The translations under genes and the position numbers were made by a program. 64,000 nt of DNA from Candidatus Sericytochromatia bacterium. Its GTDB lineage: Bacteria > Cyanobacteriota > Sericytochromatia > UBA7694. The notes under the pieces were generated by a model. That model had not been told where the DNA came from. It made no database searches and worked only from the letters and a program-made list of their open reading frames with translations. Positions 8,001-51,072 of this stretch are shown here, in pieces; within the stretch, counting starts at the first letter, position 1; the number at the start of each line of letters is the position of its first letter. The stretch is from positions 9,848 through 73,847 of the forward strand of contig JBIKWL010000006.1 in assembly GCA_044356335.1 (NCBI GenBank), given 5' to 3'.

Positions 8001-8041
8001 GCGAGCAGGGCTGCAGATACGGGTTTGAATAAGGCTTTCAT
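5036..8041 (-). CDS. lipoprotein, paralogue B (1001 aa): shared N-terminal module fused to a ~700-aa gluzincin-like HExxH metallopeptidase region
   Basis: Same signal peptide, lipobox and first ~290 aa as 2522..4075. The downstream unique region contains VVLHELFHTFQ (HExxH) with Glu residues 17-23 aa further on, a thermolysin-like spacing. Confidence 0.65.
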   Translation of the reverse strand: MKALFKPVSAALLASFLAACSLIPPAQQSSQRQAQAQVQTAADTGQKPPEKVTFPNMVTTTPLNTNLPADKNAQLNAALEQALAEKPAEEGFAVQSFNLPQIFVVRFMAQAKNLKQQVKIPENGEFKLVLEASSGKKLEILDGDGSDGQATIRLPKQTYETLLHLQGPWKPNSSLEVSDDLYYVKDTLSSKQGKLLDLNRWFLLGVRPLPVPSDWYNPDGQKLVLKFKTDTVKEFQMAWWTTNQKAAYPPGIQQIGPAGGIVELPGVAKLELPAGALSAPTVVVMRQQKEVASRKDYCPNPYDPNQCYLGWVFAAPIVKIEPLGLKLNKPAPLDLPVYTFFERYSPISIEEVGSLEINNTVSWQYFPYLAKRPHIRKFSDITHHNLIMSLQQFAYISRQMYYTSSVEEFYQSQGFKTQSETSPPCAIKGAVQYALSEHFYLVDNSGKACPESLENIKKYLETGHAALIGRGWEMRPPPLSFQPAGLDESRIPVQFQFNPPGDFLAQVLPLFGPTGQYLGPQINIAVNEANPFNDPFSAEVVLHELFHTFQDAYMVDKRDTFKKEERAMIEGTAEFAGFFLTEELKTTFGFTTVNPTKSHYAGRVKHLETLDTSLFLRLDQYNAPVGRDAYDTVAFWTYLFNSYGTKGIAELIHLYGSKHRVQEILTRSIASLSDLLKQKSGSPTIDDYYLNFVKDAIIQKNVSLFTEIELNHIAYKKKHTISNTHTVQNPLLVSSEGTEPLSVVNLLLQADQKIRQPRNLYIRSISPTPETTFFISNQEGRRKIREFLYPGLVGVNNTEGIAVKTELDNSGRLRRKPYISSDFSVSKEGFLMIPSFGHEQPVKSAILSIYNTLWKVAFWDDPRKNAFTMNLEVFLGPKLLSAEWPKEKDGQDITTDKAAPQLDLTGTGFDPSNTEIIFQPRSEVGKEIKQKPVFLESKIDSDGVEIQNMFVNIPNQALKGGWIEARSANIPSNRIEHTTYACNMLPTNASFSTAAQKPCPQ

Positions 8042-8170
8042 TTAATTGCCTCCTAACTTCGGCATGCTCAGTTACCCTCCGGGTAGAGGATATAGCGGCC
8101 AGTGTTGGCCAAGGTGTCTTGGACCTCCACCTCTAGTGTGTGGCCTGCCAGGCGATGGCGCAAGGTAAAA
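7174..8170. repeat. direct repeat copy B of the ~1 kb segmental duplication
   Basis: See copy A. The 8103-8170 stretch (3' end of the big gene) is present three times (also 2396-2465 and 4135-4200). Confidence 0.85.
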
Positions 8171-24483: not shown

Positions 24484-27400
24484 CTACAAGCAGATCGCAA
24501 AAGCCTTTTCCATCGCTGTTTTAAGCTCTGCAAAAGCGCTTTCTAGTCGCGGCCAATCCTGCTCTAAGGCTTCCTGATTGTGATCCAATGCCGCTTGCTC
24601 CATGGTTTTGACCAATCTCAGCAGGTGGGAATTGCTGACATTGGAGGTCGCCCCTTTGATTTTATGCAATTGTTGTGCCGCTTGATCGAGATTTCCCGCT
24701 TTGAGACTTTGAGCCAGATATTCTAATTGGGGGGGAATTTCACTTAAATACAGGGTCACCAACTCGCGGGCCCAATCGGAATCCATCATGACCCTTTCGA
24801 GCAGGTATTGAAGATCGAAGGCTTGGCTGTTGACGTTTTCGGGTTGTGGATTTTCGGCAGCCCCATTTTCCAGGCTGGGAAGTTTATCCAGGTATTTTCT
24901 CAGGACCATTTCTAATTCTTTGAACAAGAGCGGTTTACTCAGGTAATCGTTCATGCCCGTACTCAGACAGCGCTCACGGGTGCCTTCTTGAATATCTGCC
25001 GTCAGGGCCACAATCGGCACTTCTGAATTGAGCACCTCTGCTGTTTGGTTGCGAATTTGCCGTGTGGCTTCAAAGCCATCCATACCCGGCATTTGGCAGT
25101 CCATCAAAACCAAAGCATACGGAATTGTCGAAAGAGCCAGTAAAACCTCTTCGCCACTGGCAACAGCATCGGCTTGATAGCCCAGTTTATCGAGCATGCG
25201 CAGGGCCACCAATTGATTGGTGGGATTGTCCTCTGCCACCAAAATGCGCCCCTGGCGTTGGGGCCGATTTTGGCCATTTTCTTGTTCTGTGGGCAAAAAA
25301 AGCTGCCAGCAGTTGCCGTCTCTGTTGAGTAAGCTCAATGCCTCCTCTAAGACGGGTTTGCGTAAGGGTTTGGTCAAACAGCCTTTAAATCCCAATTGTT
25401 TCAGGTTTTCAATCTGGGTATAACCGGTCATGGGGGTTAAAAGCAAGGTTTGGGCCTGAAGCAGATCTGAGTTTTTGCTGAATTGGTGGCCCCACAAGGT
25501 GCCTTTGCCGTCAGGCAGTGTCAAATCGAGCAGGACGATGTCAAACGGGGTGTCTTGACGTTTGGCCTGCCAGGCTGTTTCTAAGGCCGCTTCTCCATTG
25601 CCGACACTGCTTAATTCGCAGTTCCAGCTTTGGCACCAATTGTGCAAGGCCTGATGGGTGGCTTGGCTGGGAGAGGCCAAGAGCAGCCGTTGACCTGTGA
25701 AGGACAACTCTTTGGCGGGCAATGACCGATGGGCGGCTGTTTCAAGTGGAATGCTGAAATAAAAGCAGGCACCTTCACCCTCTTGGCTGTTTAAATGAAG
25801 ACTGCCACCCATTAACTCAACCAATTGTTTGCAAATGGCGAGCCCCAGGCCCGTTCCTCCATATTTGCGCGTGGTCGAGCCATCAGCCTGCATAAATGGC
25901 GAGAAAATTGCATTTTGGCGATCGACGGGAATGCCAATCCCGGTATCTTGGACTTGGAATTCAATCTCTTGTCCTCCGTGCTCGCCGGTGTGCTGGGATG
26001 TGCTCTGTGATGTACTCTGTGCGGCCAAAACAATTTGTCCCTGTTTGGTGAATTTGACGGCATTTCCACCCAGATTGAGCAAGACCTGGCGCAGACGGGC
26101 CGGATCACCCCGCACCCAGAGGGGAACATCGGGGGAGATCAAACAAACCAGATCGAGGCCTTTTTCTTGGGCTTTGACGGCCAACATTTCTGCGGTATCT
26201 TCCAGCAGGGCATGTAAGTCAAAATCCAGCCATTCCAAATCCAGTTTTTGGGCCTCCATTTTTGAGAAATCCAGTAAATCGTTGAGCAGGGTCAAAAGTG
26301 ACTCGCCACTGCGGTGCACAATACTGGCGTATTGCCGCTGCTCAGTATTTAAATTGCCCTCCAATAAAAGTCCACTCATCCCAATAATGCCATTCATGGG
26401 CGTGCGCAATTCGTGGCTGATATTCGCCAAAAATTCACTTTTGGCCTGATTGGCCTGCTGGGCTTCAACGGCCATTGCCTGAGCGCGGCAGCGGCTTTCT
26501 TCGAGCTGAAAATTGGATTCCAGCAGGGCCTCTTCGGCCTTTTTGCGGGCCAGCGTTTGGGCCAGCATATTGGCAAAGGTTTCCAGCACCTGCAACTCTT
26601 CTTTACGCCAATGACGGGTTTGCGTGGCTGAATCAAAACTGATAAACCCTTCCAGGCTGTTTTGCCACACCATAGGCACCACCAGCAAAGCGCGAATCCC
26701 CATATCTTGCCAGAGCTCTTTTTCACGCCAGGCCTCTGAAGGCAGGGCCTGAATATCTGGTACTTCGAGGATTTTAAACTGTTTGAGTGAAGCCATGCCC
26801 CAGGGAAAGAGTTCGGCTGAAACCCCCTGCATTTCGTGAAGGATTGGACGCACCCCTTCGGCATGCCATTCGTGGCTGCTGTAGATTTTATTCTGGGCCC
26901 TGAGATGAAAGAGCAGGCAGCGATCCACACCCAGCAGGCGGCCAATTTCACCCAGGGCCACATCCAGCGCCGTGTCGATTTCTCCCACCGGCAGGTGAAT
27001 AAAACGGGTTGAGAGATGGGTGATTAATGAGAGCAACTCGACTTGGTAGTGTAGAATTTTTTCGACCTGCTCCTGTTCGGTAATGTCTTGCAGCAGAACC
27101 AATTCAGCCTCTTTTTCAGCAAAGAGCAGGGGGTGACTGGTGGTTTTTACCAAAATTTGCCTGCCTGTTTGGGTAATATGCCTTTGTAATTCGACATTTT
27201 CTTGGTTTCCAGGCTGGGGAATATATGCGCTGCCAGTGGCTTTTTGAATCTGATCCAGCCGGAGTGTAAGAAAGGCCTCCTGGCTCCAGCCATAATGGCT
27301 GACAGCAGCTTCATTGACCGCCAAAAAGTACTGGCTTTTGCGGTCGTAGATCCACATCGGCAGCGGATTGTTTTCAAAGAGTTGGCGGTAGCGGGTTTCA

Positions 27401-28446
27401 CTCTCACGCAGATCGCGTTGGGCCTGATATTCTTGGGTTATTTCTCGCAGTAAGCAGATATAACCCAGGTGTTTTTCCTTTTGGTAGACGGGTTCTATTT
27501 TGAGATCAAAGCCCCGAAAATGGCCAGCGAGGGTTTGGGTCAACTCAGAGTGAAAATTTGACCAGGGGGTTTGTTCCCAAAGGGGTTCGGCGCTTTCCCA
27601 GTCACCCAGGCAGAGTTTAATTGGGGTTCCCAGGTTTTTGATGCTCAGGCCCAGCTGTCTTTGAGCCGCTGGGTTAAAATCCACCAGCCGTTCCTGGGGG
27701 TCGGCAATCAGAACGGCGTCTGATAATTTTTCAAAGAGCAGGGTTCGGGCCAGGGGGGGGAGTTCGAGAAAGTTGAGTCGCAGCCCCCAGAGAAACAAGA
27801 GACAACTGATTCCCAAGGCAAACGGTGTGGGGTCAATATTCCATGGGCTATTGCCTGTTAGATAGAGCAGATTTGCCAGCCAGGGGACCAAAGAACCGAT
27901 TAAGAGCACCACAAAGTTTTGGCGATAAGGGGTTCCGACCTGACGCCAGCTCATAAAAAAAAGCAGATTACTGAACAAAACCGCCAGGCCTGAATAAATT
28001 TGAGCAGGCCAATACCAAGGGCCTTTCTCAGACATAAAAACCGGGAAGGGACCCGAGGTGTCGACCCAGGTGTGGACATAAAAGAGGTGATGGCTTGAAT
28101 TGCTATATAACATGAGCAGGATCATGCTCGAAAAACTGAACAAGAGAAGATAGACAGAGGCTCTCAGCCATTGAGAGCGATAGGTATACGAGAGGCTAAA
28201 GACGATTAAAAACGTGGGCAAAAAGCTGGTGCCCAGGTATTCCATATAAATCCAAGGCATCATACTTTTAATTTCAAAAGCACAGAGTTCGCCCGCATAT
28301 CCAGCCGCATAAAGGGTGCTGGCAATTAACAGAGCACTAAAACTCCAGGAACCTGGTTTGCTGCGAAAGCGCCAAGTGCTACCCGCCATACGTAAAAGCA
28401 GGATGGCCGTCCCCAGTAAAAACAGGGAAAAATTATTAAAGTACAT
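24484..28446 (-). CDS. hybrid sensor histidine kinase (multi-TM sensor, PAS/GAF, HisKA, HATPase_c, two receiver domains, C-terminal Hpt)
   Basis: H-box [17 protein letters not shown], then HATPase G-boxes. Receivers are recognisable at [11 protein letters not shown]...[11 protein letters not shown]; Hpt at [10 protein letters not shown]. The true start is likely ATG at 28446 (strong AAGGAGAGG RBS); the track ORF extends to 28602. Confidence 0.85.
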
Positions 28447-28623
28447 ACCTCTCCTTTGTGTGCTGGCTTTTGTGCGGACTTCATTTAAAGCCTGTCTGAC
28501 TCTCATTTCTATTTTAACTGCCTTTTGTTTGTTTTTGATAAAGCGAGATGGGGGGCGGTTCAGGCAAAATGCGGCCCCCTTGACGATTGCACGCTGCATC
28601 ACCTATCTTGAAGGTGACGAATA

Positions 28624-29030
28624 AAAGTGGACCGGGTGATTGCGTGCAGTTTCGGCTGTGCGAGGAAAGTCCGGGCTCCGCAGGGCAGGACGCTGGATAA
28701 CGACCAGTGGGGGGAACCCCAGGACAGTGCCACAGAAAAAAACCGCCCTAAACGCAGCAGACTGTGAGCAAGATACGCAGCAAATACGCAGCACTGAATA
28801 CAGCACACACAGACGCAGGGCAAGGGTGCAAAGGTGGTGTAAGAGACCACCGGCAATTGGGTGACCAATTGGCCAGGCAAACCCCGTTCGGAGCAAGGCA
28901 AACAGAGATAACGGGCTGCCCGCCCAGGTCTCGGGTATGCTGCTAGAGGTGGTCGGCAACGGCCATCCCAGAGGGATAATCACCCCTTGCCTTCGGGCAG
29001 GGACAGAACCCGGCTTATAGGTCCACTTTT
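28624..29030 (+). ncRNA. rnpB: RNase P RNA (bacterial type A)
   Basis: P4 strand GAGGAAAGTCCGGGCTCC at 28661-28679 and ACAGAACCCGGCTTA at 29003-29017. The P1 helix pairs 5' AAGTGGACC with 3' GGTCCACTT. ORFs 28599..28901 and 28603..28983 (minus) overlap the RNA and are judged spurious. Confidence 0.9.
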
Positions 29031-29065
29031 ATTCTTTCTCTCCAGCTTTTTTCAGGAGTCCCGTC

Positions 29066-33395: not shown

Positions 33396-34187
33396 ATGAC
33401 GCTGATTCTTGCGATTCCCACTGCCCAAGGCATTGTTTTGGCTTCAGATACGCAATACACCAGCGGTGAGGTGCGCACCACTGGGCCCAAAATTTACCCG
33501 CTTAATGGCCAATGCGCCTGGGCCGGTGCTGGTGAAATTGCCCTGATTCAGCGCGTTCAGGAGGCCATTGAGGCCGCTTCGGCCCGCCATTCTTTGGCCG
33601 ATCTGCGCGACAGTCTTGCGCGGATGGTGCAGCAATCGGTCAGGGCCCTACTCGAACTCGATGTCTTAACCGAGTTTGTTCAAAGCGATCCCTCACTTTT
33701 GCTTTCGCTGCATCCCGGGGATTTTATTTTTGCTGAATTTAATCAAGGTCAGCCGCGCATGTTACACATTACGAGCAGCGGTACGCCCGAATGGATTTCA
33801 AGTCTCTTTGCCAGTGGCAATGGGGCCAATTTTGCCTATGCCCTGATGCAAAAATACCAAACCACTCAACTCAGCTTGGAAAGCGCGAGTTTATTGGCGT
33901 TTAAGGTGATCGATGAAACCATTCAGGTCGGGGCTTATGGCCTGGATTACCCCATCGATATCTGGCTGATCCGTGAAACGGGTCTGGCCCGCTTGGAAGA
34001 AAAAGAATTGTTTTTATTGGCCGAGGCCACCGAGACCCTGCGCCAAAAAGAAATTCGGCTCTTGCGCCAAGTGCCCTTTCAGTTTGAACCGACAAAACCC
34101 GCTAAAGAAAACAAGGACAGCAAAAAAGACCCAAATAGGGGCAAACTGAAAAAAACCGAAAAATCAGGTCCGGTTGTAGGAGCTTAG
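33396..34187 (+). CDS. proteasome-type Ntn-hydrolase (HslV/Anbu/BPH-like beta-subunit homologue) with Lys-rich C-terminal tail
   Basis: MTLILAIPTAQGIVLASDTQYTSG...GPKIYPL supplies Thr2, Asp18 and Lys32 at the positions of the proteasome beta catalytic Thr1/Asp17/Lys33. There is no propeptide. The tail reads ...KPAKENKDSKKDPNRGKLKKTEKSG. Confidence 0.55.
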   Translation: MTLILAIPTAQGIVLASDTQYTSGEVRTTGPKIYPLNGQCAWAGAGEIALIQRVQEAIEAASARHSLADLRDSLARMVQQSVRALLELDVLTEFVQSDPSLLLSLHPGDFIFAEFNQGQPRMLHITSSGTPEWISSLFASGNGANFAYALMQKYQTTQLSLESASLLAFKVIDETIQVGAYGLDYPIDIWLIRETGLARLEEKELFLLAEATETLRQKEIRLLRQVPFQFEPTKPAKENKDSKKDPNRGKLKKTEKSGPVVGA

Positions 34188-34786
34188 TTTTTGGAGACGG
34201 TTTCGTCGGCAATCACGGCTTTCTGCTGAGACTTGAGGCCCGCCAATTCCTGTTTGAGCGAAGCGATTTGCTGTTCCAACGAAGTGATGCGCTCGGCTTT
34301 GCTGACGGGTTCAGCGCTGATGGCTTCCTCTTCTTCTTTGTCCGAGGGATGGGCCACTTTGTCCATCACTTTGTGGATATTCTCAGTGCCTTTTTCGAGC
34401 AATTCTTTTACGAAGCGGGCCCGCTGATCTTCGGCCAATTCGCCGCGTTTGACCAGTTCATTGACAATTTCATCGAGTTTTTCACGGGTCAGAGAGGCCA
34501 AGCCAATCCCGCCGAGCAGGAATTTTTTAATGACTGACTCAATGTTCTGACCTTCTTGGATCAGCCCCTGCAGCACAAATTTATTTAAAAAGAGCTGCTT
34601 GGTTTCGAGATTTTCTTGCAAAAAGATCTGGCCGAGAATCTTGGGGGTGATGTCGTGGCCCTGGCTATCGATCACCTGGATATCGTCGCCCTGGCGGATC
34701 ATATCGGCAATTTCACCCAGGTTAACCGTTTTGCTGGTCTGGGTATCATATAGTTTGCGGTTATCGTAACGCTTAATGACTCGCAC
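34184..34786 (-). CDS. PhaR-like PHA/PHB accumulation regulator (N-terminal PHB_acc_N DNA-binding domain + coiled-coil/phasin-like C-terminus)
   Basis: N-terminus VIKRYDNRKLYDTQTSKTVNLGEIADMIRQGDDIQVIDSQGHDITPKILGQI matches the PhaR N-terminal domain. Convergent with the proteasome-like gene; the stops overlap by 4 nt. Confidence 0.65.
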   Translation of the reverse strand: MRVIKRYDNRKLYDTQTSKTVNLGEIADMIRQGDDIQVIDSQGHDITPKILGQIFLQENLETKQLFLNKFVLQGLIQEGQNIESVIKKFLLGGIGLASLTREKLDEIVNELVKRGELAEDQRARFVKELLEKGTENIHKVMDKVAHPSDKEEEEAISAEPVSKAERITSLEQQIASLKQELAGLKSQQKAVIADETVSKN

Positions 34787-34921: not shown

Positions 34922-35983
34922 ATGTGGTATCAAAATTTACTCGAAGCAAATCAAATTCCCGATCCCCTGCTGCGCTGGGGAATCCGCTATTACAATTCAA
35001 TGCATCTGCGTCGCCTGGCCAGAGGGGGAGCAGAGGCTCATGAGGCCCGCTTTCAGGCCTTTTTGAAGCAGCTTGAAAAGGCCCCGCTTGCAGCCCTGCC
35101 CGAAAAAGCCAACGAACAGCATTACGAGGTACCCGCTGCTTTTTATCAAAAGGTGCTGGGCCCCCATTTAAAATACAGCTGTGGTTATTGGCCGAGTGGC
35201 CAAGAGAGTCTGGCCGAATCTGAAGCCAAAATGTTGGCCCTGACCTGTGAGCGGGCCCAATTGGAGCAACTCAAACCCGGTCAACAGATCTTGGAATTGG
35301 GCTGTGGCTGGGGCTCGCTCAGCCTTTATATGGCTCAACACTTCCCTGAGAACCCCATCACGGCGGTCTCTAATTCCCACAGTCAGCGTGCCTATATCGA
35401 AACCCAGGCCCAGAGCCGGGGTTTAACCAATCTGCGCGTGATCACCCAGGATATCAACCAGTTTGAACCCGAGCAGGGTTTTGATCGGATTGTCTCGGTT
35501 GAAATGTTTGAACACCTGCGCAATTATCCCGAACTCTTTCGCCGTTTAGAGCGCTGGCTCTTGCCTGGTGCATTGCTCTTTGTGCATATCTTTGGCCACC
35601 ACACCCATGCCTATCTCTTTGAGGTGGAACACGAGCGGGATTGGATGGCTCGCTATTTTTTCAGTGGCGGCACCATGCCCTCACGGGATTTGCTCTTACA
35701 TGTCTGTGAGCCGCTGATCGCCCGCAATCTCTGGGTCGTCAATGGCCAACACTACCAAAAGACCTGTGAGGCCTGGCTGGCCCAAATGGACGCCCAAGAA
35801 GCGGTCATTCGTCCGATTCTGGCAGCCACCTATGGGGCCGAGCAGACCACCCGTTGGTGGGTCTATTGGCGCGTGTTTATGCTGGCCTGCGCTGAACTCT
35901 TTGGCCACAGAGCAGGCCAGGAGTGGCAGGTCTATCATTATTTATTTGAAAAACCCGAGCAGGCAATCAGTTCAACTGACTGA
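34922..35983 (+). CDS. cyclopropane-fatty-acyl-phospholipid synthase family methyltransferase
   Basis: ILELGCGWGSL (SAM motif I) with CMAS-family features: ...RIVSVEMFEH... and ...YFFSGGTMPS.... Confidence 0.75.
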   Translation: MWYQNLLEANQIPDPLLRWGIRYYNSMHLRRLARGGAEAHEARFQAFLKQLEKAPLAALPEKANEQHYEVPAAFYQKVLGPHLKYSCGYWPSGQESLAESEAKMLALTCERAQLEQLKPGQQILELGCGWGSLSLYMAQHFPENPITAVSNSHSQRAYIETQAQSRGLTNLRVITQDINQFEPEQGFDRIVSVEMFEHLRNYPELFRRLERWLLPGALLFVHIFGHHTHAYLFEVEHERDWMARYFFSGGTMPSRDLLLHVCEPLIARNLWVVNGQHYQKTCEAWLAQMDAQEAVIRPILAATYGAEQTTRWWVYWRVFMLACAELFGHRAGQEWQVYHYLFEKPEQAISSTD

Positions 35984-36884
35984 TCACGCTGTTCATGCGG
36001 TGTAAGTGGTTGGCCACTTCGGCCGAGGTCTCATCAATGATCGTCATGATGCCTTTGGCTTGTACCTGTTGGCCCTGCCATTCTTTCTGAAAGCTGCCAT
36101 TCCAACGGCTCCAGGCGTCGTCAAGCTCGCCTTTGATCTGTTGGCGGGCATTGGCATCGATGGTATCGATAAAAGGGCCCTGAGTGGTAAAAAACTGATT
36201 GTAGATCAGATTGGCCTTGAGGGCCTCGTTATAGGTGGTGATGCCTTGTTTCTTGGCTTCGTTGAGCAAGCTGACTGCCTGATCGCGAAACTCCGTGACA
36301 CGGGCCATCATCACTTGTTTTTGCTGAGGGTCCATTTTTCCCCATTGGGAATAAACCTGTTCAGCGGTTTCTGCGGCCTGAGCGGCATAATAGCGGGCAC
36401 CCCAGGTAAATCGGTTGGCTGTTTCGCGGGATTGTTTGGCCGCGTCACTGTGGGCGGCAATTAATTGCACTGCCTGTTGGGGGGCCTGCACGGGTTGGGT
36501 CTCCTGTTGAAGGATTTCCTGGATATTGGCCATGGCTGGCCCTTCGGGAATGTCTTTGGGCAGGGTAAATATAATTTTGGCGGGCTCAGCCGGTTTTGTT
36601 GGGCCTGCCGGCTGGGACGGCTGCTGGGGTTTGTTGAGATAGTCCACGGGCTTGCCATCGGGGCGGTGAAAGGGCGAGAGGGTGGATTGTTTGTCGCGCA
36701 GCAGATTGATATTCGGCTGAATGCCACGGGCCATCGGCTGGGTGCTGACACTGTCTCCACTGAAACCTGAGGGAGGAGCGCTGGGAGGCTCATTGCCGCG
36801 TGCAAAGGGCGACATCGGGGAGCGGTTGGGGGATGCTCCCGGTATGGAGGGGTTAGAAGCGGGCTGCGGTTGTACCGAATTCAT
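35967..36884 (-). CDS. hypothetical protein with Pro/Gln/Ser-rich disordered N-terminal half and helical C-terminal domain; paralogue of 36889..37902
   Basis: 305 aa. The C-terminal region (...ITTYNEALKANLIYNQFF...DDAWSRWNGSFQKEWQ) aligns with the neighbour's ...ATYDEALYANLAMDELL...QEAWKGWTTGVEE. Confidence 0.5.
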   Translation of the reverse strand: MNSVQPQPASNPSIPGASPNRSPMSPFARGNEPPSAPPSGFSGDSVSTQPMARGIQPNINLLRDKQSTLSPFHRPDGKPVDYLNKPQQPSQPAGPTKPAEPAKIIFTLPKDIPEGPAMANIQEILQQETQPVQAPQQAVQLIAAHSDAAKQSRETANRFTWGARYYAAQAAETAEQVYSQWGKMDPQQKQVMMARVTEFRDQAVSLLNEAKKQGITTYNEALKANLIYNQFFTTQGPFIDTIDANARQQIKGELDDAWSRWNGSFQKEWQGQQVQAKGIMTIIDETSAEVANHLHRMNSVISQLN

Positions 36885-36888
36885 GGGA

Positions 36889-37902
36889 CTACCTCTGGAT
36901 CATGACCCGGCCGAGGATCTGGTCTACCTGATTGAGGTAAGCCGTCACCGTACCAACCGAGCGGGTAAATACCTCGGGCGCTGCAGGCAGCTTCTTGGAG
37001 AAGAAGAGATACTGGCTCTCTTCGACACCCGTGGTCCAACCTTTCCAGGCTTCTTGAACGCTGCGGTTGGCATCTTGGGCCAAACCGGGCACCTGTGGGA
37101 AGCGCGGCAGCAATTCATCCATGGCCAAATTGGCGTAGAGGGCTTCGTCGTAAGTGGCTTTGGTGTACTCTTCGGCGCGTTTGAGGGATTCCAGAGCTTG
37201 GCTTTTTTTGGACTCCAACTCGCTCAGGGTTTGATTCAATTGCTGAGGAGGCATCCGGCCTTGGCTCTGTTCAATGCGCTGAGCCAAAACAGCGGCTTCT
37301 TTGGCAAGGCCTTCGGCATGGCGTGATTCTTCTTCAGCGTGGCGGCGGTTGTCCAAGGACTTTTTGGCGTGCAAATCGATGTGGCGGAAAGCAGTGCCAG
37401 GATCTTGAACCTGTTGTAGGTCACCAGCCACCACTTGGCGGGCCTGGTTGATATCGGTTCCGGGAGGAGCAGCAGGCATAGAGCTTGGGGGGGGCATGCC
37501 CGGCGGGGGCATACCTGGGCCGCCCTGACCCGGCTGTTGGGGTTGGGGTTGCTGGGCTTTGTCTTTGCCAAAGCCAAACATCCCAAAAATACCTTTAAAG
37601 AGTTTGACCACAAGGCTGACGATTGTATTCAGAATTTTGGCGATAATGCTGGTCAGAGAGGTGAAGATATTGGCCATGCCGGTGGCCGCGCCACCAATGG
37701 AAGAAGAGGCACCAGATGCTGCCATGGCTCCCTGTACATACCCTGTTTGCTGAGGGCCGGTGGGGCGATAGACGTCATTGGCATAGCCGGGGGCACCATA
37801 AGGAACTTGGCCAGAGGGCACATAAGGACCATTTTGATTGCCATAATTGGGGACAGGGGGTCCGTAGGCCTGGTACTGGGGCGAAATATTCACTTTAGAC
37901 AC
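36889..37902 (-). CDS. hypothetical protein with Tyr/Pro/Gln/Gly-rich prion-like N-terminus, one hydrophobic helix, poly-Pro/Gln linker and helical C-terminal domain
   Basis: 337 aa. N-terminus MSKVNISPQYQAYGPPVPNYGNQNGPYVPSGQVPYGAPGYANDVYRPTGPQQTGY. Hydrophobic segment NIFTSLTSIIAKILNTIVSLVVKLFKGIFGMF, then QQPQPQQPGQGGPGMPPPGMPPP. A 4-nt gap separates it from the downstream paralogue. Confidence 0.5.
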   Translation of the reverse strand: MSKVNISPQYQAYGPPVPNYGNQNGPYVPSGQVPYGAPGYANDVYRPTGPQQTGYVQGAMAASGASSSIGGAATGMANIFTSLTSIIAKILNTIVSLVVKLFKGIFGMFGFGKDKAQQPQPQQPGQGGPGMPPPGMPPPSSMPAAPPGTDINQARQVVAGDLQQVQDPGTAFRHIDLHAKKSLDNRRHAEEESRHAEGLAKEAAVLAQRIEQSQGRMPPQQLNQTLSELESKKSQALESLKRAEEYTKATYDEALYANLAMDELLPRFPQVPGLAQDANRSVQEAWKGWTTGVEESQYLFFSKKLPAAPEVFTRSVGTVTAYLNQVDQILGRVMIQR

Positions 37903-38002
37903 CTCCGCATGATCGTGCTCTCTGATCTGACTGATCTATACATAGCCACTTGAGCGTGCTTTCTTGTTTATCTTTAAACAAAAATTAGTAATTTCTTTAG
38001 AT

Positions 38003-38554
38003 CTACTTATGTTTTTTTTTGTGTTTTTTTGCTGGGCGTCGGCCGGATCTGCGCCGGAGACGCTTCAACATCGAAACAATTTCATCGGCGAGTGTATGGC
38101 TAAAACCGCCCAACCACAAGCCCACAAACCCCACTCCCACATAAACAGGATTCTGAAAAAAGACGGCCGTCTGCTTGGCGAGGCCAAAACCCTGCTCTGC
38201 CAATTGAGCTTGGTCAAGGGCCAGGGCCACACGGGTCAGGGTGGCAAAAAGCAGGGCGACCCAAACCGAAAGGTAGAGCAAACGCGTCAGCACGCCCAGA
38301 ACCGGTCCGTGCGAAAAAGGGGAACGGTGAGGAACCAGTTTGCGGTAGGGGATCCAAATCCAGCGAAACCAGCCCCAACGCTTATATTGTACACTTTTTG
38401 TATCCAGATCTCCACTAAACATCAAGCCTGCGAACAAAAAGCAGGCAACCAGAAGGGCTGTAACACTCAATTCGTGCGAGATCATCCAGCCGAGCCAGGC
38501 CATTGGCAGGGCCGTGAACCATGTGATTTTGTCATGGGTTTTACCACTGGGCAC
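38003..38554 (-). CDS. DUF457/YdjM-like membrane-bound metal-dependent hydrolase
   Basis: 183 aa, multi-TM, with conserved His motifs (GKTHDK, SGDLDTKS...HRSPFSHG, FSHTLADEIV) matching the YdjM-family pattern. Basic C-terminal tail RRRSGRRPAKKHKKKHK. Confidence 0.45.
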   Translation of the reverse strand: MPSGKTHDKITWFTALPMAWLGWMISHELSVTALLVACFLFAGLMFSGDLDTKSVQYKRWGWFRWIWIPYRKLVPHRSPFSHGPVLGVLTRLLYLSVWVALLFATLTRVALALDQAQLAEQGFGLAKQTAVFFQNPVYVGVGFVGLWLGGFSHTLADEIVSMLKRLRRRSGRRPAKKHKKKHK

Positions 38555-38563
38555 AGGCAGAAC

Positions 38564-40021
38564 TCAATCGCTGCGAAGGCGTTCGACAAAAATATGTTTG
38601 CGGTCTTCCAATTCGCGAATGCCCCAGAGAATGGAGAGGCGATCGTGGGGCATCACAGCAAAGAGTTGGCCAATGCAGCGTTGGCCATCGACCCAGCCAA
38701 AAACAGCCTGGGCCAATTTGGAGAAAACCTCGTTTTTGGCGGGTTCGCGAATCAATTCCGGGATGTCCCGATCCTGATAATCGGGCCAGAGGGTTTCCAT
38801 CTCCTGCAGATAATTCTGGGCCTCTGCGAGCAGCACTTTCTGATCATAATCCAGGTATTGGCCAGAGCCTTCGGTAGGCGTGCCGGGAATAAATGAAAAA
38901 TTCCCGCTTTCCCAGGAGAGCAAATCCATCAGCAGCAAATCGCCGCCGAGGTGTTTGCCTTTGATATCCGCGTAGTGAATATTCCCGTGATTAAACCCAA
39001 TGCTGCCCTGTTGCCAGGCATTCCAGATCAGGCATAAACCATCTACTTGGGCCTGCATCAGGCGTGTCACGGCCTGCATGAGACGAAAGGATTCAAACAG
39101 GCGAATGCGGGGCAATATTGCTGGGCTCACCGATGTGGGGCTGGGTTCTGATTCGGGGTAGGCTTTGTCTAAGACGACCCGAACCATCTGTTGCAATTGG
39201 CGGCTGCTGGCAAAGCGGTGTTGGGGGAATTTTTGCATACAGCTCAGAATCAATTGGTTGAGATCGGGGCCGACGCTGGGGTTGAGTTGCATCGGCGGGA
39301 TGGGATCGCGACTGAAAATTTCGAGCACGGCGGTGCCAGGGTTGGAGGCATTAAAGGGCATTTTGCCCGTGAACAATTCGTACATCAACACACCCAACGC
39401 GTAGAGATCGCTCTGAGCGGTGATCAGACGGCTGTTTTGGATTTGTTCGGGCGACATATAAGCCACGGTTCCCAAGAGGCTACCATCAATCGTGAGTTGG
39501 TTTTGTCCCTCAATTTTGGCAATCCCAAAATCCAGTAATTTGACCTGTTTTCCCGTTATAATCATCACATTTTCGGGTTTAATGTCCCTGTGAATAATGT
39601 GTTTGGAGTGGGAGTATTCTAAGGCGTCCAATAATTGTTCGATCCAGAGCAGAATTTCGCGGTGGGAAGGGGCATGTCTTTCGACATATTCTTTTAGGCT
39701 CAACCCCTGTAAAAACTCCACCACCATAAAATAATCACTGCCAATTTGCTTAAAATCATAGACCGACATGATATTGGTATGGCGCAATAATTGCATCGTC
39801 AGGGCTTCATTGCGGAAACGCATAATCCGCATTTCGCGATCCGGGCCTGACATATCCGGAGAGAGAGTGAGATGTTTGACCGCCACTGTCTCACCCGAAG
39901 CAATGTCCATGGCTCTAAAAATGGCAGCTGTTGCGCCGCGGCCAATTTCTTCAATCAGAACATAGCGCCGATTCACCTCAAACCCTGGAGAAATATGCGA
40001 TGAATACAGGGAATCAGACAT
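38564..40021 (-). CDS. Ser/Thr protein kinase (Hanks-type) with C-terminal DUF4388-like domain
   Basis: Kinase subdomains IGRGATAAIFRA (Gly loop), VAVK, HRDIKPENVMI and DFGIAK. The C-terminal ~200 aa (...GLCLIWNAWQQGSIGFNHGNIHYADIKGKHLGGDLLLMDLLSWESGNFSFIPG) fit the DUF4388 pattern. Confidence 0.75.
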   Translation of the reverse strand: MSDSLYSSHISPGFEVNRRYVLIEEIGRGATAAIFRAMDIASGETVAVKHLTLSPDMSGPDREMRIMRFRNEALTMQLLRHTNIMSVYDFKQIGSDYFMVVEFLQGLSLKEYVERHAPSHREILLWIEQLLDALEYSHSKHIIHRDIKPENVMIITGKQVKLLDFGIAKIEGQNQLTIDGSLLGTVAYMSPEQIQNSRLITAQSDLYALGVLMYELFTGKMPFNASNPGTAVLEIFSRDPIPPMQLNPSVGPDLNQLILSCMQKFPQHRFASSRQLQQMVRVVLDKAYPESEPSPTSVSPAILPRIRLFESFRLMQAVTRLMQAQVDGLCLIWNAWQQGSIGFNHGNIHYADIKGKHLGGDLLLMDLLSWESGNFSFIPGTPTEGSGQYLDYDQKVLLAEAQNYLQEMETLWPDYQDRDIPELIREPAKNEVFSKLAQAVFGWVDGQRCIGQLFAVMPHDRLSILWGIRELEDRKHIFVERLRSD

Positions 40022-47990: not shown

Positions 47991-48099
47991 TGGCTATTGT
48001 TGCTTTAAACTGCGATTGAATTTACAATTCCTACGTTCGATTGCTCTGTCTGCTTATTGAAGATTAATAGCAAAATAAAAGTAATATAAACATAAGCCT

Positions 48100-51072
48100 G
48101 TGCACCCTCTCGAAAAACTTTATCCACAGCTCAAAAACAGTGAGCCCTCCTCTCTGCAAATGGATTCTTTTTTGGCACATATGGATCTGATGCAAAGCTA
48201 TTTGGTTTTTTGCTTTGGTCTGCAGGCTGAAAAAAAGATGAGCTTCTACCATTTGGGTGAAATGCATTTTTATTCAAATCAAGTTTATTTATCTGACAGA
48301 TATGACTCTTTGGACATCATCAAAAAAAGTCTCTTTTCTGCCCAGGATTATTTTCAAAAGGGATATGCCTCTTATGAGAGAAATAATTCAGATTTTTATT
48401 TATTGGAAGATGAAATTGTTGGATTTGAATTAACTTGTAATTATTACATTGTGTTATTTGATTTTTTAATTGGAGACAGAGCTAAAAGTGTCGAAATGGC
48501 CAGATCCGAATTGGATAAAAATAAGGATCTGATGCATGAAGACTTGAAGTCCATCTATAAATACATCATAGAGCATGATTTAAACTGTTCTCCTTTCGAG
48601 ATTTTAAGTGCATTCTACCGAGGTGATTTTAAAAATATTTTTTTTAAAACGATAAAATTATCTCAATATCAATTAGATGAAGATGATTTTTCTCGTTCAA
48701 TTAAATTAAAAATGGATTTACTCTTTTACACAGAAGAGTATGGTTTTAATTATCAACAGGTAACATGGCGTTCCTCTCTTTTAAAGCATCTCTATGCATC
48801 TGAATACCCTGAATCAGAAAAAGTAAACGTCTTGAGCCTGATTCAAAATGATCACAGCTTCAAAGATAGCTGTTTAAAAAGCCAACTCAATTATTTTGAA
48901 CTCAATCAGACACTGCCTGAATCCATCGATATTTTGGTTGATTGGCAATGCCAAGATCTAAACCGGCTGACATCGTCTTTGCGGATGGTCAAAGACGGAG
49001 GTCTCTGTTTAATTGCTGTACCGCGTTCCTGTACAAATCCCGAAGTCATCAGAAAAGAAATGGAAATTGGAATTCAAGCAAGCTGTTTTTTAATAGACAG
49101 GGAAAGCTTTTCTGATATTTTAATTGTCTATGGTTTTAAAAATAGAAAATTTAATCTGCATACCCGCCTTTTGATTTTGATGCGTCCGGATTCTGTTCAA
49201 GCCATGGGTGGCGCTGATATACAGCTATTCAAAAGCCGTGCAAGGCTTAAACATGCGGGTATTTGCTCAGATATTTCACTGGCTTGCCGCTTAGATAGCA
49301 GAGTTTATGCTTGTATCTATGTTGTTGGCTACTACCATGAAATATATAAATTTAATTATCTAAATCAAAGTAATCTGCCAAAATTATGCATGCCCATCGC
49401 TTCTCTCTGCTTTGAAGAGAGTCAGGTTTCGGACTACTTTATTGGTATGTTTAAGCATGATCTGCAAGAAAAAATTACTTCTAATCACAAAAATTTGCTT
49501 TGTATTGAAAATATAAATTTTTTAAGACAATCAATTTTAAATAAGTTAGCATTAGATTCAAATTGGAATAATCGCTTTTACAAGGAACTGGCCAAGTCCT
49601 GTGATTATTTTATTCCACAAAGTCAAAAAGAAATGGATCTATTATTCCCCCAACGGGATTACAAAGAATTCGAACTGGTTTTTAATGGCTGTAATTTTGC
49701 GGGTGTTGTCGAAGAAAAGTCAAACATTTTTGTGGATACACACAAAATTAATGATTATATCATTTGTGTCGGACGGATCCAAGCCAACAAAAATCAACTT
49801 TTTTTGGCTTATGCCTTACGGGAAACCGAGATCCCACTTGTCTTAATTGGCAGAGAATTTCAGCAAGGCTATCTCAAATTATGCCAAGATCTGGGCAATA
49901 ATCAGGTTTATCATTTTGAGGATGTATCTTCGGACATGTTGCTCTCGGCGTTACAAAACGCCCGACTATTTGTTTTACCGAGTTTTTCAGAGGTCTCTCC
50001 CCTTTCTTCTATTGAGGCAGCAATGATCGGTGTGCCTGTGGTTTTAACCCAAAATTCAGGCCAAGATGAGCAATTTAAAGATGCTTTTTATTATTGTGAT
50101 CCCTGGGATCCAGAAAACATAAAAGAGGTAATTGTTAAGGCTTTTTATGCTGATAACAGCGATAAAATAAAAAGAGCTAAAGAAATAGCTGAAAAAACGT
50201 CGTCATGGTCGATTATGTCTGATAAAATTGCAAATATAATTTATATGCTGATTGGAAGAGAGAACGGCGATAATTATATTCAATATCAGGACAAGTGGTT
50301 TAAACTCCTCCCAGCTTTGGCAGAACAGGATAAATCCGTTGATATCGCACATTCAGCTTATCAGCCGAGTATTTATCCAATTGCCAATGTCGGTACCTTT
50401 CTTGCCCAACAATATGATCCGCTCATATACAAAGACGTGTTTTTAATTGTCAATACAGACCTTGCGGAATTCAAAATGAAACAATTGGGTTTTGAAAACA
50501 CCATTAAACAAATACCAAGTCCCAATCAATCAACTTATTTGGGTGGGGTGAGTCTGGCCCTTGAAGATGCTTGCCAAAGGAATTTGCTCTGTTTCTATGA
50601 CCCTGAAAATATCTTTTCATGGCAAGAAACCATCCTGGCTTATATTGAGGGGCACAGTCCAGAAGATAACTGTGTTTTATTTATTTGCACGTATGATTGT
50701 GATGACAGCCACTATCCAGAAGAAGAGATCTCAGATTATTTAATCAGCCAAGGATGTGACCTTGAAAGTATTCCAAACATCTCCATCTTGACGGATTTTA
50801 AAGCACAAAAACAATTAAAAGACCTGTTTAAATCTGTCGACATCCTTGTTTTTCCAGCCAAGACCCTCTGGGGATACGAGTCTTTGTACTATCAAATCAT
50901 TTACTCTGAAAAAACAGTCATTACCCACCCGTTTAATAGGGGGATTCACACTCAGAAAATTATTTATTTAGAGCCATTTGAATCACTTTGCCAACTCCCT
51001 TCTTTTGCGGAGATTCCAGTTTCTGTTCAGACCCTGAGCCAGTGCTTAAAATTGGCCGATCCCTCTCGCTGA
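48100..51072 (+). CDS. 990-aa multidomain glycosyltransferase (central GT4 domain with EX7E motif) encoded in an AT-rich island; N- and C-terminal domains unassigned
   Basis: GT4 C-terminal core: ...ICVGRIQANKNQLFLAYAL...LVLIGR...FVLPSFSEVSPLSSIEAAMIGVPVVLTQNSG.... Codon/amino-acid usage is strongly AT-biased (K, N, I, F, Y rich), unlike the flanking genes. Confidence 0.6.
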   Translation: MHPLEKLYPQLKNSEPSSLQMDSFLAHMDLMQSYLVFCFGLQAEKKMSFYHLGEMHFYSNQVYLSDRYDSLDIIKKSLFSAQDYFQKGYASYERNNSDFYLLEDEIVGFELTCNYYIVLFDFLIGDRAKSVEMARSELDKNKDLMHEDLKSIYKYIIEHDLNCSPFEILSAFYRGDFKNIFFKTIKLSQYQLDEDDFSRSIKLKMDLLFYTEEYGFNYQQVTWRSSLLKHLYASEYPESEKVNVLSLIQNDHSFKDSCLKSQLNYFELNQTLPESIDILVDWQCQDLNRLTSSLRMVKDGGLCLIAVPRSCTNPEVIRKEMEIGIQASCFLIDRESFSDILIVYGFKNRKFNLHTRLLILMRPDSVQAMGGADIQLFKSRARLKHAGICSDISLACRLDSRVYACIYVVGYYHEIYKFNYLNQSNLPKLCMPIASLCFEESQVSDYFIGMFKHDLQEKITSNHKNLLCIENINFLRQSILNKLALDSNWNNRFYKELAKSCDYFIPQSQKEMDLLFPQRDYKEFELVFNGCNFAGVVEEKSNIFVDTHKINDYIICVGRIQANKNQLFLAYALRETEIPLVLIGREFQQGYLKLCQDLGNNQVYHFEDVSSDMLLSALQNARLFVLPSFSEVSPLSSIEAAMIGVPVVLTQNSGQDEQFKDAFYYCDPWDPENIKEVIVKAFYADNSDKIKRAKEIAEKTSSWSIMSDKIANIIYMLIGRENGDNYIQYQDKWFKLLPALAEQDKSVDIAHSAYQPSIYPIANVGTFLAQQYDPLIYKDVFLIVNTDLAEFKMKQLGFENTIKQIPSPNQSTYLGGVSLALEDACQRNLLCFYDPENIFSWQETILAYIEGHSPEDNCVLFICTYDCDDSHYPEEEISDYLISQGCDLESIPNISILTDFKAQKQLKDLFKSVDILVFPAKTLWGYESLYYQIIYSEKTVITHPFNRGIHTQKIIYLEPFESLCQLPSFAEIPVSVQTLSQCLKLADPSR

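Follow-up and report, generated by a model that had tools for sequence, protein, structure and literature searches.

ZipA-like tethers of bacteria consist of a membrane anchor, a Pro/Gln-rich linker, and a C-terminal globular binding domain, and EsxA/EsxB (WXG100) and YaxAB/XaxAB (ClyA family) are tandem paralogous pairs of long-helix proteins that form obligate heteromers. FUS-like sticker-spacer sequences carry evenly spaced aromatics in an uncharged polar context at high valency (tens over >100 aa) and are demonstrated to phase-separate, and yeast-type prion-like domains are disordered regions of at least ~60 aa that are strongly enriched in Q/N and poor in proline and in charge, score positive in PLAAC/PAPA, and aggregate in a self-templating manner. 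High proline with low Q/N is unfavorable for yeast-type prion domains by both PAPA and PLAAC. ALPS-type lipid-adsorbing helices (e.g. ArfGAP1 and GMAP-210), as defined in PMC6164224, are long, with a polar face mainly of Ser/Thr/Gly, few or no charges, and sparse bulky residues, about one per turn, that give curvature selectivity.

Here we compare these systems with 2 genes, A and B, in the window—i.e. the whole stretch of 64,000 nt that was analyzed, from a Candidatus Sericytochromatia bacterium. The predicted modules of A follow the same order as those of ZipA-like tethers (lipid anchor, flexible P/Q linker, and folded C-terminal interaction domain), but there is no sequence relation: the ZipA C-terminal FtsZ-binding domain is unmatched in Pfam and NCBIfam, the predicted fold of A is all-helical, its anchor is amphipathic rather than transmembrane and has a tail ahead of it, and a dedicated paralogous partner is encoded alongside. 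As in EsxA/EsxB and YaxAB/XaxAB, A and B are adjacent, co-translated paralogs of long helices; they differ in that sequence searches link them to neither pair, fold similarity is weak (ClyA TM-score 0.13–0.27), and a WXG turn hairpin, a secretion-system context, and signal peptides are all lacking. WXG100 proteins are ~100 aa long with W-x-G in the turn, whereas the A/B domain covers ~190 aa and its conserved W..W..G follows helix 4 rather than sitting in the turn of the hairpin. The reading we tentatively prefer, at a probability of roughly 0.4, is that A and B form a lipid-surface-anchored scaffold whose tails would give weak multivalent or motif-based binding.

The 2 ORFs lie in tandem at 35967–37902, where the original prediction had placed them (Table 1). 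On their arrangement, A and B read as adjacent minus-strand genes that are bicistronic and translationally coupled, with an intergenic gap of 4 nt between the stop codon of A (36889–36891) and the ATG of B (36884). The true start of A is probably the GTG at 37893, 3 codons inside the longest ORF, which yields 334 aa, since the GGAGG overlaps the first GTG and homologs open with MNISPQ.

Table 1. Features of the A–B locus, in positions of the window.
Feature	Position	Strand	Size or context	Basis
DUF2227 multi-pass membrane protein gene	38003..38554	-	directly upstream of A, ~100 nt AT-rich spacer	
GGAGG ribosome-binding site of A	37902..37906	-	8 nt upstream of GTG 37893	read from sequence
Gene A, longest ORF	36889..37902	-	337 aa	36 homologs of ~330 aa
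A residues 4-53, N-terminal tail, Tyr/Pro/Gly/Gln-rich, nearly uncharged, predicted disordered	37744..37893	-		composition, AlphaFold2, conservation
A residues 54-76, invariant G-Y-x-Q-G, then Gly/Ala/Ser-rich flexible stretch	37675..37743	-		family conservation
A residues 77-112, predicted amphipathic helix	37567..37674	-	~36 residues	composition, AlphaFold2, hydrophobicity, hydrophobic moment
A residues 113-142, variable Pro/Gln/Gly linker, predicted disordered	37477..37566	-	small CCCAAC repeat	composition, AlphaFold2, conservation
A residues 143-337, predicted C-terminal helical-bundle domain	36892..37476	-		profile comparison, AlphaFold2, fold search
AGAGG ribosome-binding site of B	36892..36896	-	within final codons of A	
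Gene B	35967..36884	-	305 aa	35 homologs
B residues 1-110, Pro/Ser/Gln-rich region, predicted disordered	36555..36884	-		AlphaFold2, motif conservation
B residues 111-305, predicted paralogous C-terminal helical-bundle domain	35970..36554	-		profile comparison, AlphaFold2, fold search

By BLASTP (E = 5e-10, 26% identity across 178 aa) and by alignment of the A and B family profiles with hhalign (99.4% probability, E = 1.5e-21), the 2 proteins are paralogous far beyond chance. These comparisons and AlphaFold2 bear out the proposed tandem paralogs with a common helical C-terminal domain and differing disordered N-terminal halves, with the correction that the shared region, put at ~130 aa, extends over ~190 aa (A 144–333, B 111–304). 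In the AlphaFold2 models, pLDDT exceeds 90 over most of both C-terminal domains, and the secondary-structure elements follow an identical order in A (a PPGTD motif, helices 151–161, 168–212, 219–267, and 274–289, a beta-hairpin at 293–305, and helix 308–336) and B (helices 121–129, 135–179, 186–232, and 244–262, a beta-hairpin at 264–277, and helix 279–304). The shared domain is thus modeled as an elongated antiparallel helical bundle plus a beta-hairpin.

A match between this domain and a well-characterized family, the outcome that the original prediction had named as speaking against it, was looked for, and nothing significant appeared in any library. Specifically, both full proteins retrieved nothing significant from Pfam, NCBIfam, PHROGs, or PADLOC; 20 isolated C-terminal domains searched against Pfam at E ≤ 10 gave scattered coiled-coil-type noise alone; A-family, B-family, and combined-domain profiles matched no PDB sequence under E = 0.028; neither model reached E < 0.001 against PDB folds (Foldseek); and no viral fold matched the domain significantly. 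The weak PDB-sequence matches that did appear, to coronavirus S2, dicistrovirus VP4, and protein A repeats, were put down to composition. The best fold matches of both A and B are elongated three-helix bundles—i.e. Smac/DIABLO, the MIC60 helical bundle, and gp41 mimetics—with target-normalized TM-scores of up to 0.72 (6jx6_C) and 0.58 (9qwr_B), but with E-values of 0.02–0.3 and identities of 7–13%, and the extra beta-hairpin and short helix of the A/B domain have no place in them. Judged from the models, this likeness is that of a generic fold and carries no evidence for shared ancestry or function; the sequence and model searches together mark the ~190-aa domain as undescribed.

The N-terminal halves of both proteins are predicted to be disordered, with pLDDT <50 for A 1–87 and 109–139 and for most of B 1–115, where blocks of 10 average 40–54. 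The compositions given earlier for the low-complexity regions agree with those computed for A residues 1–60 (P 17%, G 15%, Y 13%, Q 12%, and 3 charged residues), the A linker (residues 116–150; P 37%, Q 17%, and G 17%), and B residues 1–110 (P 21% and S 13%). Across the family, the A tail measures 36–53 aa before G-Y-x-Q-G; that of the window protein closes with a conserved D-x-Y-R-P-T-G-P motif. In almost all A-type members sampled, distant ones included, it holds 10–26% Tyr and 1–4 charged residues, with Pro at 7–31% (19% in the window protein) and Q+N at 5–26% (21% in the window protein), and even the most distant members, and one genome of low GC content, keep this composition. A Tyr-rich uncharged segment, defined as 45 aa with ≥5 Tyr, ≥70% Y/G/P/Q/N/S/T, and ≤4 charged residues, is unique to A among the 126 six-frame ORFs of ≥100 aa in the window. 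Recent DNA slippage was rejected as the origin of the low complexity: the sole repeat is a 16-nt CCCAAC one, in the A linker.

Family tails of 26–55 aa carry 5–13 aromatic residues. In the window protein, 8 aromatics in 52 aa have a gap CV of 0.33 vs 0.75 in shuffles (p = 0.009), and spacing is evener than the shuffle mean in 16 of 18 family representatives, the p-values of these related sequences not being independent. The tail was rightly singled out as unusual, i.e. it is so locally, and its tyrosine spacing is more regular than that of shuffles, as in sticker-spacer sequences. The label of a eukaryote-like prion region fits poorly by comparison. Like FUS-family low-complexity and yeast prion-like domains, the tail is uncharged, contains Tyr/Gly/Gln, is predicted to be disordered, and shows evenly spaced aromatics in an uncharged polar context; it differs in being several-fold shorter, far richer in Pro, and only modest in Q/N, and in carrying a position-specific motif. 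It has neither the length and strong Q/N enrichment of yeast-type prion-like domains nor the sticker valency of FUS-like sequences. The further claim that such segments are rare in bacteria was overstated, as bacterial proteomes average about 11 PLAAC/PAPA-type predictions (PMC6400439).

Conservation also bears on how the tail would work. By mean pairwise identity (tail 0.55, linker 0.41, and domain 0.62), the A tail is conserved nearly as strongly as the folded domain, and position by position this holds for Y35, Y40, D43, Y45, G54, Y55, Q57, and G58, which include the D-x-Y...G-Y-x-Q-G motif. Specific binding motifs thus fit the tail better than the composition-driven prion or amyloid behavior originally suggested, and high proline, short length, and position-specific conservation together argue against a yeast-type prion domain in A. 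A profile of the A tail plus helix found no match at E ≤ 0.01 among 5.8e9 proteins, family members included, presumably due to composition correction, and the search gives no evidence for this module on other domains.

The N-terminal half of B, which had been described as low complexity, instead combines conserved linear motifs with variable spacers between them. A conserved (R)PxSPF motif lies at residues 21–30 and a conserved block, QPxARGIQPNxNLL...SPFxRPDGKPxD(F/Y)L, at residues 44–84, with a mean pairwise identity of 0.67–0.70 in the motif blocks vs 0.27–0.39 in the spacers. B has no hydrophobic segment (KD19 maximum 0.33).

An unlikely alternative is that the Tyr tail of A, with aromatic B tails elsewhere, acts as a sticker-spacer sequence in a condensate or prion-like scaffold, giving phase separation or amyloid-like assembly, perhaps in 2 dimensions on a membrane, with the bundles adding valency. 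The high Tyr and low charge of almost all A-type tails, their even aromatic spacing, their unique composition within the window, the Tyr-rich tails of B-type proteins in distant lineages (P0079 and the B of L010), and an A helix segment rich in beta-branched residues and of low model confidence all fit such a scaffold. Against it stand the short tails with few aromatics, their high Pro and low Q+N, the nonindependence of the spacing p-values, and the position-specific conservation, which points to defined contacts.

The single hydrophobic segment first noted in A, as a helix, does exist (residues 77–112); it is amphipathic, however, and falls short of transmembrane grade. I/L/V/F occupy its hydrophobic face and S/T/G/N/A with 3 Lys its polar face, and GxFGxGK comes at its end. 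In 12 family members the helix is amphipathic over ~36 residues (muH 0.39–0.57, vs 0.09 in a real transmembrane helix, the DUF2227 control), with S/T/G/N/A at 11–18 of 18 polar-face positions and 0–3 charged residues per segment. This long, nearly uncharged helix with its Ser/Thr/Gly/Asn polar face resembles ALPS-type helices, yet 18 of its 36 residues form a continuous I/L/V/F face that is dense (~1.8 bulky residues per turn) rather than sparse, and it is bacterial, with a Tyr-rich tail before it and a Pro/Gln linker after it, its lipid binding being putative. By the criteria of PMC6164224, the dense hydrophobic face predicts promiscuous, not curvature-selective, binding.

Could segment 77–112 nonetheless cross the bilayer? 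Such a bitopic A, perhaps oligomeric via its small-residue face, would hold the tail outside and the bundle inside, as the positive-inside rule predicts from the KDK/KKK that follows the helix. The Kyte-Doolittle 19-residue maximum is borderline at 1.75, just above the usual transmembrane threshold of 1.6, the Lys residues follow the helix, GxxG-type small-residue patterns occur in the segment, and the nearly chargeless tail would permit signal-independent translocation. A single-pass anchor, however, should combine favorable insertion energy with a low hydrophobic moment over 19–23 residues. Here, the rough insertion free energy, summed with an approximate, position-independent Hessa-type scale, comes to +2.4 to +6.9 in 12 of 12 members vs –1.3 for a transmembrane helix of the neighboring DUF2227 protein, the hydrophobic moment is strong along the entire segment, which is atypical for single-pass anchors, and the segment of distant members is still more polar and Gly-rich. 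In one relative (P0080), moreover, the tail lies behind a ~170-aa domain that has no visible signal peptide, an arrangement that speaks against export of the tail. We consider a bitopic A as unlikely as the condensate, and on its sequence the helix is more polar than a classic transmembrane helix would be; an oligomeric membrane-spanning state is possible, given the low-confidence helix model (pLDDT 44–60) and a Kyte-Doolittle value that just passes the threshold.

In the preferred lipid-anchored scaffold, A would lie flat on the cytoplasmic membrane face or another lipid surface via its ~36-residue helix without spanning the bilayer; this helix has a bulky I/L/V/F face and a Ser/Thr/Gly/Asn face, with Lys residues after it. 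The flexible Pro/Gln/Gly linker would keep the helical bundle of A off the lipid surface, where it could pair with the paralogous bundle of soluble B to give a heteromeric scaffold tethered to the membrane. Both disordered tails would then serve as interaction modules—i.e. the spaced tyrosines and D-x-Y...G-Y-x-Q-G of A and the SPF motifs of B—for weak multivalent self-association or the recruitment of partners. In this model we infer that A binds lipid, that the proteins are cytoplasmic, that A pairs with B, and what the tails do; a cytoplasmic location is favored by the lack of any hydrophobic segment in B and of a signal-like one before residue 77 in A, and by the domain order of P0080. In a version that we find slightly less probable than the 2 alternatives above, the helix would concentrate A on lipid, and tyrosines together with the aromatic/SPF motifs of B, paired through the bundles, would drive two-dimensional phase separation that organizes an envelope- or division-related process.

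If true, the scaffold model would add an undescribed family of protein domains and would give Sericytochromatia, the uncultured, non-photosynthetic sister class of oxygenic cyanobacteria, whose cell biology is almost wholly uncharted, a two-gene module that defines the lineage. It would join 3 elements seldom combined in bacteria (an uncharged Tyr-sticker tail, a helix of great length whose polar face is ALPS-like, and a helical-bundle protein as paired partner), and a module this small would make a tractable test case for the cooperation of disordered regions and lipid-adsorbing helices in prokaryotes. A true membrane condensate would be the bacterial equivalent of the Tyr-sticker low-complexity scaffolds of eukaryotes, on an unrelated, undescribed fold, and tails that merely carry motifs for a partner would leave an ordinary, though neatly organized, pair of hypothetical proteins.

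A profile search of 1.84 billion (1.84e9) representative proteins returns 22 clusters only, and every named family member comes from Candidatus Sericytochromatia/Blackallbacteria; on both grounds the module appears restricted to Sericytochromatia. The A-then-B tandem, with a gap of 3–10 nt, recurs in the window and at 5 further loci (L001, L003, L008, L009, and L010) with differing flanking genes, and a partner paralog is adjacent in every contig with a readable neighboring gene. At the loci examined, no conserved neighbor hints at a pathway apart from DUF2227, whose linkage is retained in the closer clade only; the upstream gene of L003 was rejected as a divergent DUF2227. Links to a PhaR-like gene, a Ser/Thr kinase, or a CFA synthase were also rejected, as these neighbors are not conserved.

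The PhaR-like gene (PHB_acc_N + phasin; 34184–34786) lies 2 genes off and would suit a phasin- or perilipin-like coat, in which the A helix would adsorb to a monolayer-bounded granule, e.g. of PHA or neutral lipid, while the bundles formed the coat. A dense hydrophobic face with an uncharged polar face is indeed the chemistry reported for curvature-independent lipid binding, lipid droplets included (PMC6164224). We regard such a coat as distinctly improbable: that gene sits beyond a convergent gene and is missing at every other locus examined, and phasin families are unmatched among Pfam hits even at E ≤ 10.

Far less probable is a binary alpha-helical pore-forming toxin of the ClyA/YaxAB type, in which the tandem paralogs would build a membrane pore. 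Paralogous helical proteins in tandem, one with a membrane-active segment, a beta-hairpin between helices as in ClyA-family heads, and the presence of ClyA among the weak fold matches of both models (E 0.045–0.5) are compatible with it. However, TM-scores to ClyA are low (0.13–0.27) with no match at E < 0.001, the B hairpin is hydrophilic (SFQKEWQGQQVQAK), unlike a hydrophobic beta-tongue, signal peptides and Pfam toxin matches are absent, and named members all belong to one bacterial class, with no plasmid or phage copies. Prophage or mobile-element cargo, e.g. a holin-like lysis pair, is scarcely credible despite a small membrane-active protein and an SLT-like gene downstream in L001, as a phage or plasmid origin is essentially refuted by the absence of PHROGs and PADLOC matches, by tblastn without a match in 50,697 phage and 72,556 plasmid records, by the lack of a significant viral fold match, and by housekeeping flanking genes that differ between species.

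Departures from the A-then-B order are seen at 2 loci. In L002, a distant A-type protein is followed by an HMA-domain gene rather than a B-type one, and an upstream partner could fall beyond the contig end. L011, from a distant lineage, carries 2 A-type paralogs in tandem, and 2 further paralog pairs lie on common contigs.

A and B are true tandem paralogs, as the original prediction proposed. BLASTP aligns the two proteins over 178 residues at 26% identity (E = 5e-10), and comparison of the A-family and B-family alignments (37 and 35 sequences) gives a probability of 99.4% (E = 1.5e-21) spanning A 144-333 and B 111-304. The C-terminal domain is indeed shared by both proteins, but it covers approximately 190 residues rather than the 130 first reported. 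The sequence 5' of A reads GGAGGTGTCTAAAGTGAAT. Because GGAGG overlaps the first GTG of the longest ORF, and because close homologs of A begin with MNISPQ and have lengths of 332-335 aa, the real A product is probably 334 aa long and starts from the second GTG (37893), 8 nt after GGAGG. The stop codon of A occupies 36889-36891 and the ATG of B follows 4 nt further on, with an AGAGG within the final codons of A ahead of it; this layout is that of a translationally coupled pair.

Using family alignments as input, AlphaFold2 models most of both C-terminal domains above 90 pLDDT, and the order of elements is the same in A and B: each domain opens with a short helix, continues with two long ones (45-49 residues) and a fourth of ~16-19 residues, and closes with a beta-hairpin and a last helix of ~26-29 residues. 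Positions invariant in both paralogs include the Pro ahead of helix 2 and, in A numbering, His178, Arg186, an Ala ladder (196, 200, 203, and 207), Y-(D/N)-E-A-L at 251-255, and W286..W289..G292. The domain is undescribed and goes unrecognized by curated libraries, none of which assigns it to a well-characterized family: Pfam, NCBIfam, PHROGs, and PADLOC give no match, the best E-value against PDB sequence profiles is only 0.028, and Foldseek, run against PDB with either model and also against BFVD, returns nothing at E < 0.001. The top fold matches, with 7-13% identity, are generic elongated three-helix bundles, including Smac/DIABLO (TM-score up to 0.72 normalized to the target), the MIC60 bundle, and gp41 mimetics; ClyA is a weaker match. 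We regard all of these as fold resemblance only.

The domain defines a small, lineage-restricted orphan family. Its profile recovers only 22 clusters (E ≤ 0.001) from 1.84 billion representative proteins, and all source-named members, the very distant protein P0086 included, belong to Candidatus Sericytochromatia or Blackallbacteria. Over the domain used as the query, the window shows 100% identity with a contig from 'Candidatus Blackallbacteria bacterium isolate mt_P12'. Phage and plasmid collections yielded no copies of the domain. An A-type gene followed by a B-type gene, 3-10 nt apart, is found in the window and at the relatives' loci L001, L003, L008, L009, and L010, and this order persists down to about 35-40% identity. 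Adjacent pairs are present wherever the neighboring gene is readable. Homologs P0083 and P0079 lie on one contig. P0035, a distant member, is located 124 nt from the end of its contig and is followed by an HMA-domain gene; a partner upstream could lie beyond that end. Flanking genes vary among loci, apart from an upstream DUF2227 gene in four closer species, and the conserved unit is therefore the A/B pair itself, a real, cleanly organized, lineage-specific two-gene module. The DUF2227 protein may be a clade-specific functional partner of the pair, and its gene is not found upstream of the pair at L003, L010, or L011, all of them more distant loci. DUF2227 is described as 'uncharacterized metal-binding', and the gene is kept although the other neighbors of the four species differ. 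In L001 the gene after the pair (10077-10892) encodes an SLT-like transglycosylase, and its counterpart in L008 (9529-10032) encodes a protein with a PG_binding_1 domain; these peptidoglycan-related genes could be there by chance or hint at an envelope role.

Alternative architectures also occur. The two A-type proteins of the distant locus L011 differ from each other, although each combines a Tyr/Gly/Pro/Gln tail with a Gly-rich amphipathic segment; P0085 and P0087, on one contig, look like a pair of this kind. The tail-plus-helix architecture may therefore be ancestral, the helix having been lost in B-type proteins. Among other homologs, P0078 (199 aa) is the domain alone, P0081 and P0084 carry it behind unrelated N-terminal regions, and P0074 has another segment in place of the helix and, in its N-terminal region, a possible EF-hand-like stretch. 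In P0080, a domain of ~170 residues without a visible signal peptide precedes the Tyr tail, which argues that the tail need not be exported.

Both N-terminal halves are predicted to be disordered, as originally suggested, with pLDDT below 50 over A 1-87 and 109-139 and mostly low over B 1-115 (10-residue blocks average 40-54). The compositions first described also hold: A residues 1-60 contain P 17%, G 15%, Y 13%, and Q 12% with three charged residues, the PQG linker (A 116-150) contains P 37%, Q 17%, and G 17%, and B 1-110 contains P 21% and S 13%. Rather than loose low-complexity sequence, the N-terminal half of A carries structured information, and the tails are under selection. Among 126 six-frame ORFs of the window (at least 100 aa), only A has a Tyr-rich, nearly uncharged polar segment of 45 residues. 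In almost all sampled A-types, the most distant included, a tail of 36-53 residues precedes an invariant G-Y-x-Q-G and contains Tyr 10-26%, Pro 7-31%, and only 1-4 charged residues; in the low-GC genome of L010, spacers are Asn/Met-rich and the tyrosines are retained. Conservation is at least 90% at Y35, Y40, D43, Y45, G54, Y55, Q57, and G58, and mean pairwise identity is 0.55 in the tail, 0.64 in the helix, 0.41 in the Pro/Gln/Gly linker, and 0.62 in the folded domain. Aromatic residues are more evenly spaced in the A tail of the window than in shuffles (gap CV 0.33 vs 0.75, P = 0.009), and the CV falls below the shuffle mean in 16 of 18 representatives, which are related to one another. DNA-level tandem repeats are negligible in this half of the gene. 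The tails are unlikely to act as true condensate-forming or prion-like elements, as the tail is short, its Pro content high, its Q/N content modest, and its conservation position-specific; the 'eukaryote-like prion' label is not supported by the features analyzed. Prion-type predictions are uncommon in bacteria without being exceptional, averaging about 11 in each proteome (PMC6400439).

The 'single hydrophobic helix' attributed to A does exist as one segment, but it is amphipathic and its Kyte-Doolittle maximum is borderline (1.75). Twelve family members show coherent 100-degree periodicity over 35-44 residues, with one face purely I/L/V/F, S/T/G/N/A at 11-18 of 18 positions on the opposite face, and 0-3 charged residues per segment. 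A bilayer-spanning helix that leaves the tail outside would suit that tail's lack of charge and the Lys residues that follow a terminal GxFGxG in Blackallbacteria-type proteins; polarity and hydrophobic moment do not fit, however, and we consider this topology improbable. Specifically, the whole-segment moment is 0.39-0.57 vs 0.09 in a true transmembrane helix of the neighboring DUF2227 protein, and a rough, position-independent insertion-energy sum is +2.4 to +6.9 vs -1.3 in the same control. Lipid-packing sensors of the ALPS type are defined chemically by a Ser/Thr/Gly polar face that carries few charges, while a dense hydrophobic face leads to lipid-surface binding irrespective of curvature, lipid droplets included (PMC6164224). 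The A helix resembles these sensors in its polar face and differs from them in its dense hydrophobic face (about 1.8 bulky residues per turn).

B lacks any hydrophobic segment, and neither protein has a signal-like segment. In the N-terminal half of B, conserved blocks, i.e. (R)PxSPF at residues 21-30 (mean identity 0.70) and D..Q.QP.ARGIQPN.NLL...SPF.RPDGKP.D(F/Y)L at 44-84 (0.67), alternate with variable spacers (0.27-0.39). B-type tails are Tyr-rich in distant lineages, examples being P0079 and the L003 and L010 B proteins, and an aromatic-rich uncharged tail was therefore probably ancestral to both paralogs.

The most likely mechanism, to which we tentatively assign a probability of about 0.4, is that A adsorbs to a lipid surface, either the cytoplasmic side of the membrane or some other one, through its long amphipathic helix. 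The flexible Pro/Gln/Gly linker would present the helical bundle of A, which would pair with the bundle of soluble B, and the disordered tails would provide multivalent Tyr-based and SPF-motif contacts for self-association or partner recruitment. In this view, which is more conservative than the prion one, the module would be a heteromeric scaffold anchored to lipid and equipped with disordered modules for interaction. The combination of a Tyr-sticker tail with a very long helix bearing an ALPS-like polar face is unusual, and the architecture is novel and testable.

A role in coating granules fits the helix chemistry and the nearby PhaR-like gene, which suggests that the organism makes PHA. 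That gene was not seen linked to the pair at other loci, and we consider this role quite improbable. A ClyA-type binary toxin is very improbable and a mobile-element origin even more so, given that the fold scores are weak, the hairpin is hydrophilic, signal peptides are lacking, the family is confined to one class, and phages and plasmids yielded no copies.

Coordinates of the A/B pair, related loci, and other features of the window
Feature	Position	Strand	Remarks
A	36889..37902	-	longest ORF, 337 aa
A start region	37891-37906	-	the GGAGG ribosome-binding site (37906-37902) and GTG 37902 overlap
B	35967..36884	-	ORF, 305 aa
DUF2227 multi-pass membrane protein gene	38003-38554	-	directly upstream of pair
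DUF2227 gene in relatives	L001 7351-7905; L008 6962-7516; L009 6911-7474		upstream of pair
Tandem A-type paralogs, L011	6001-6996 and 7021-7992		distant Sericytochromatia MAG GCA_014377495.1
Ser/Thr protein kinase, C-terminal DUF4388	38564-40021	-	upstream of DUF2227 and pair, same strand
PhaR-like gene	34184-34786	-	PHB_acc_N DNA-binding domain, weak phasin match; two genes downstream of pair
Proteasome-like gene, stand-alone	33396-34187	+	263 aa; Proteasome subunit PF00227, E = 1.3e-12
RNase P class A RNA, bacterial	28624-29033	+	282 bits
Hybrid histidine kinase	24484-28602		1372 aa, 7TM sensor region; adjoins RNase P RNA
ORF	20156-21919	+	587 aa
Adjacent large ORFs	5036-8041 and 8068-10917	-	1001 and 949 aa, lipoprotein-like N-termini
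ORF, GT4 glycosyltransferase domain	48100-51072	+	990 aa

Elsewhere in the window, linkage of the Ser/Thr kinase to the pair is not conserved in other species. The proteasome-like protein has a Lys-rich C-terminal tail, and its host is a relative of cyanobacteria. The 587-aa ORF and the 1001- and 949-aa ORFs have no Pfam match at E ≤ 1e-5, and the latter two are not paralogous to one another (BLASTP E = 0.013). Within the GT4 ORF, GC content falls sharply at 48001-50000 (35% vs about 52% window-wide), and because of this drop the segment may have been horizontally acquired.
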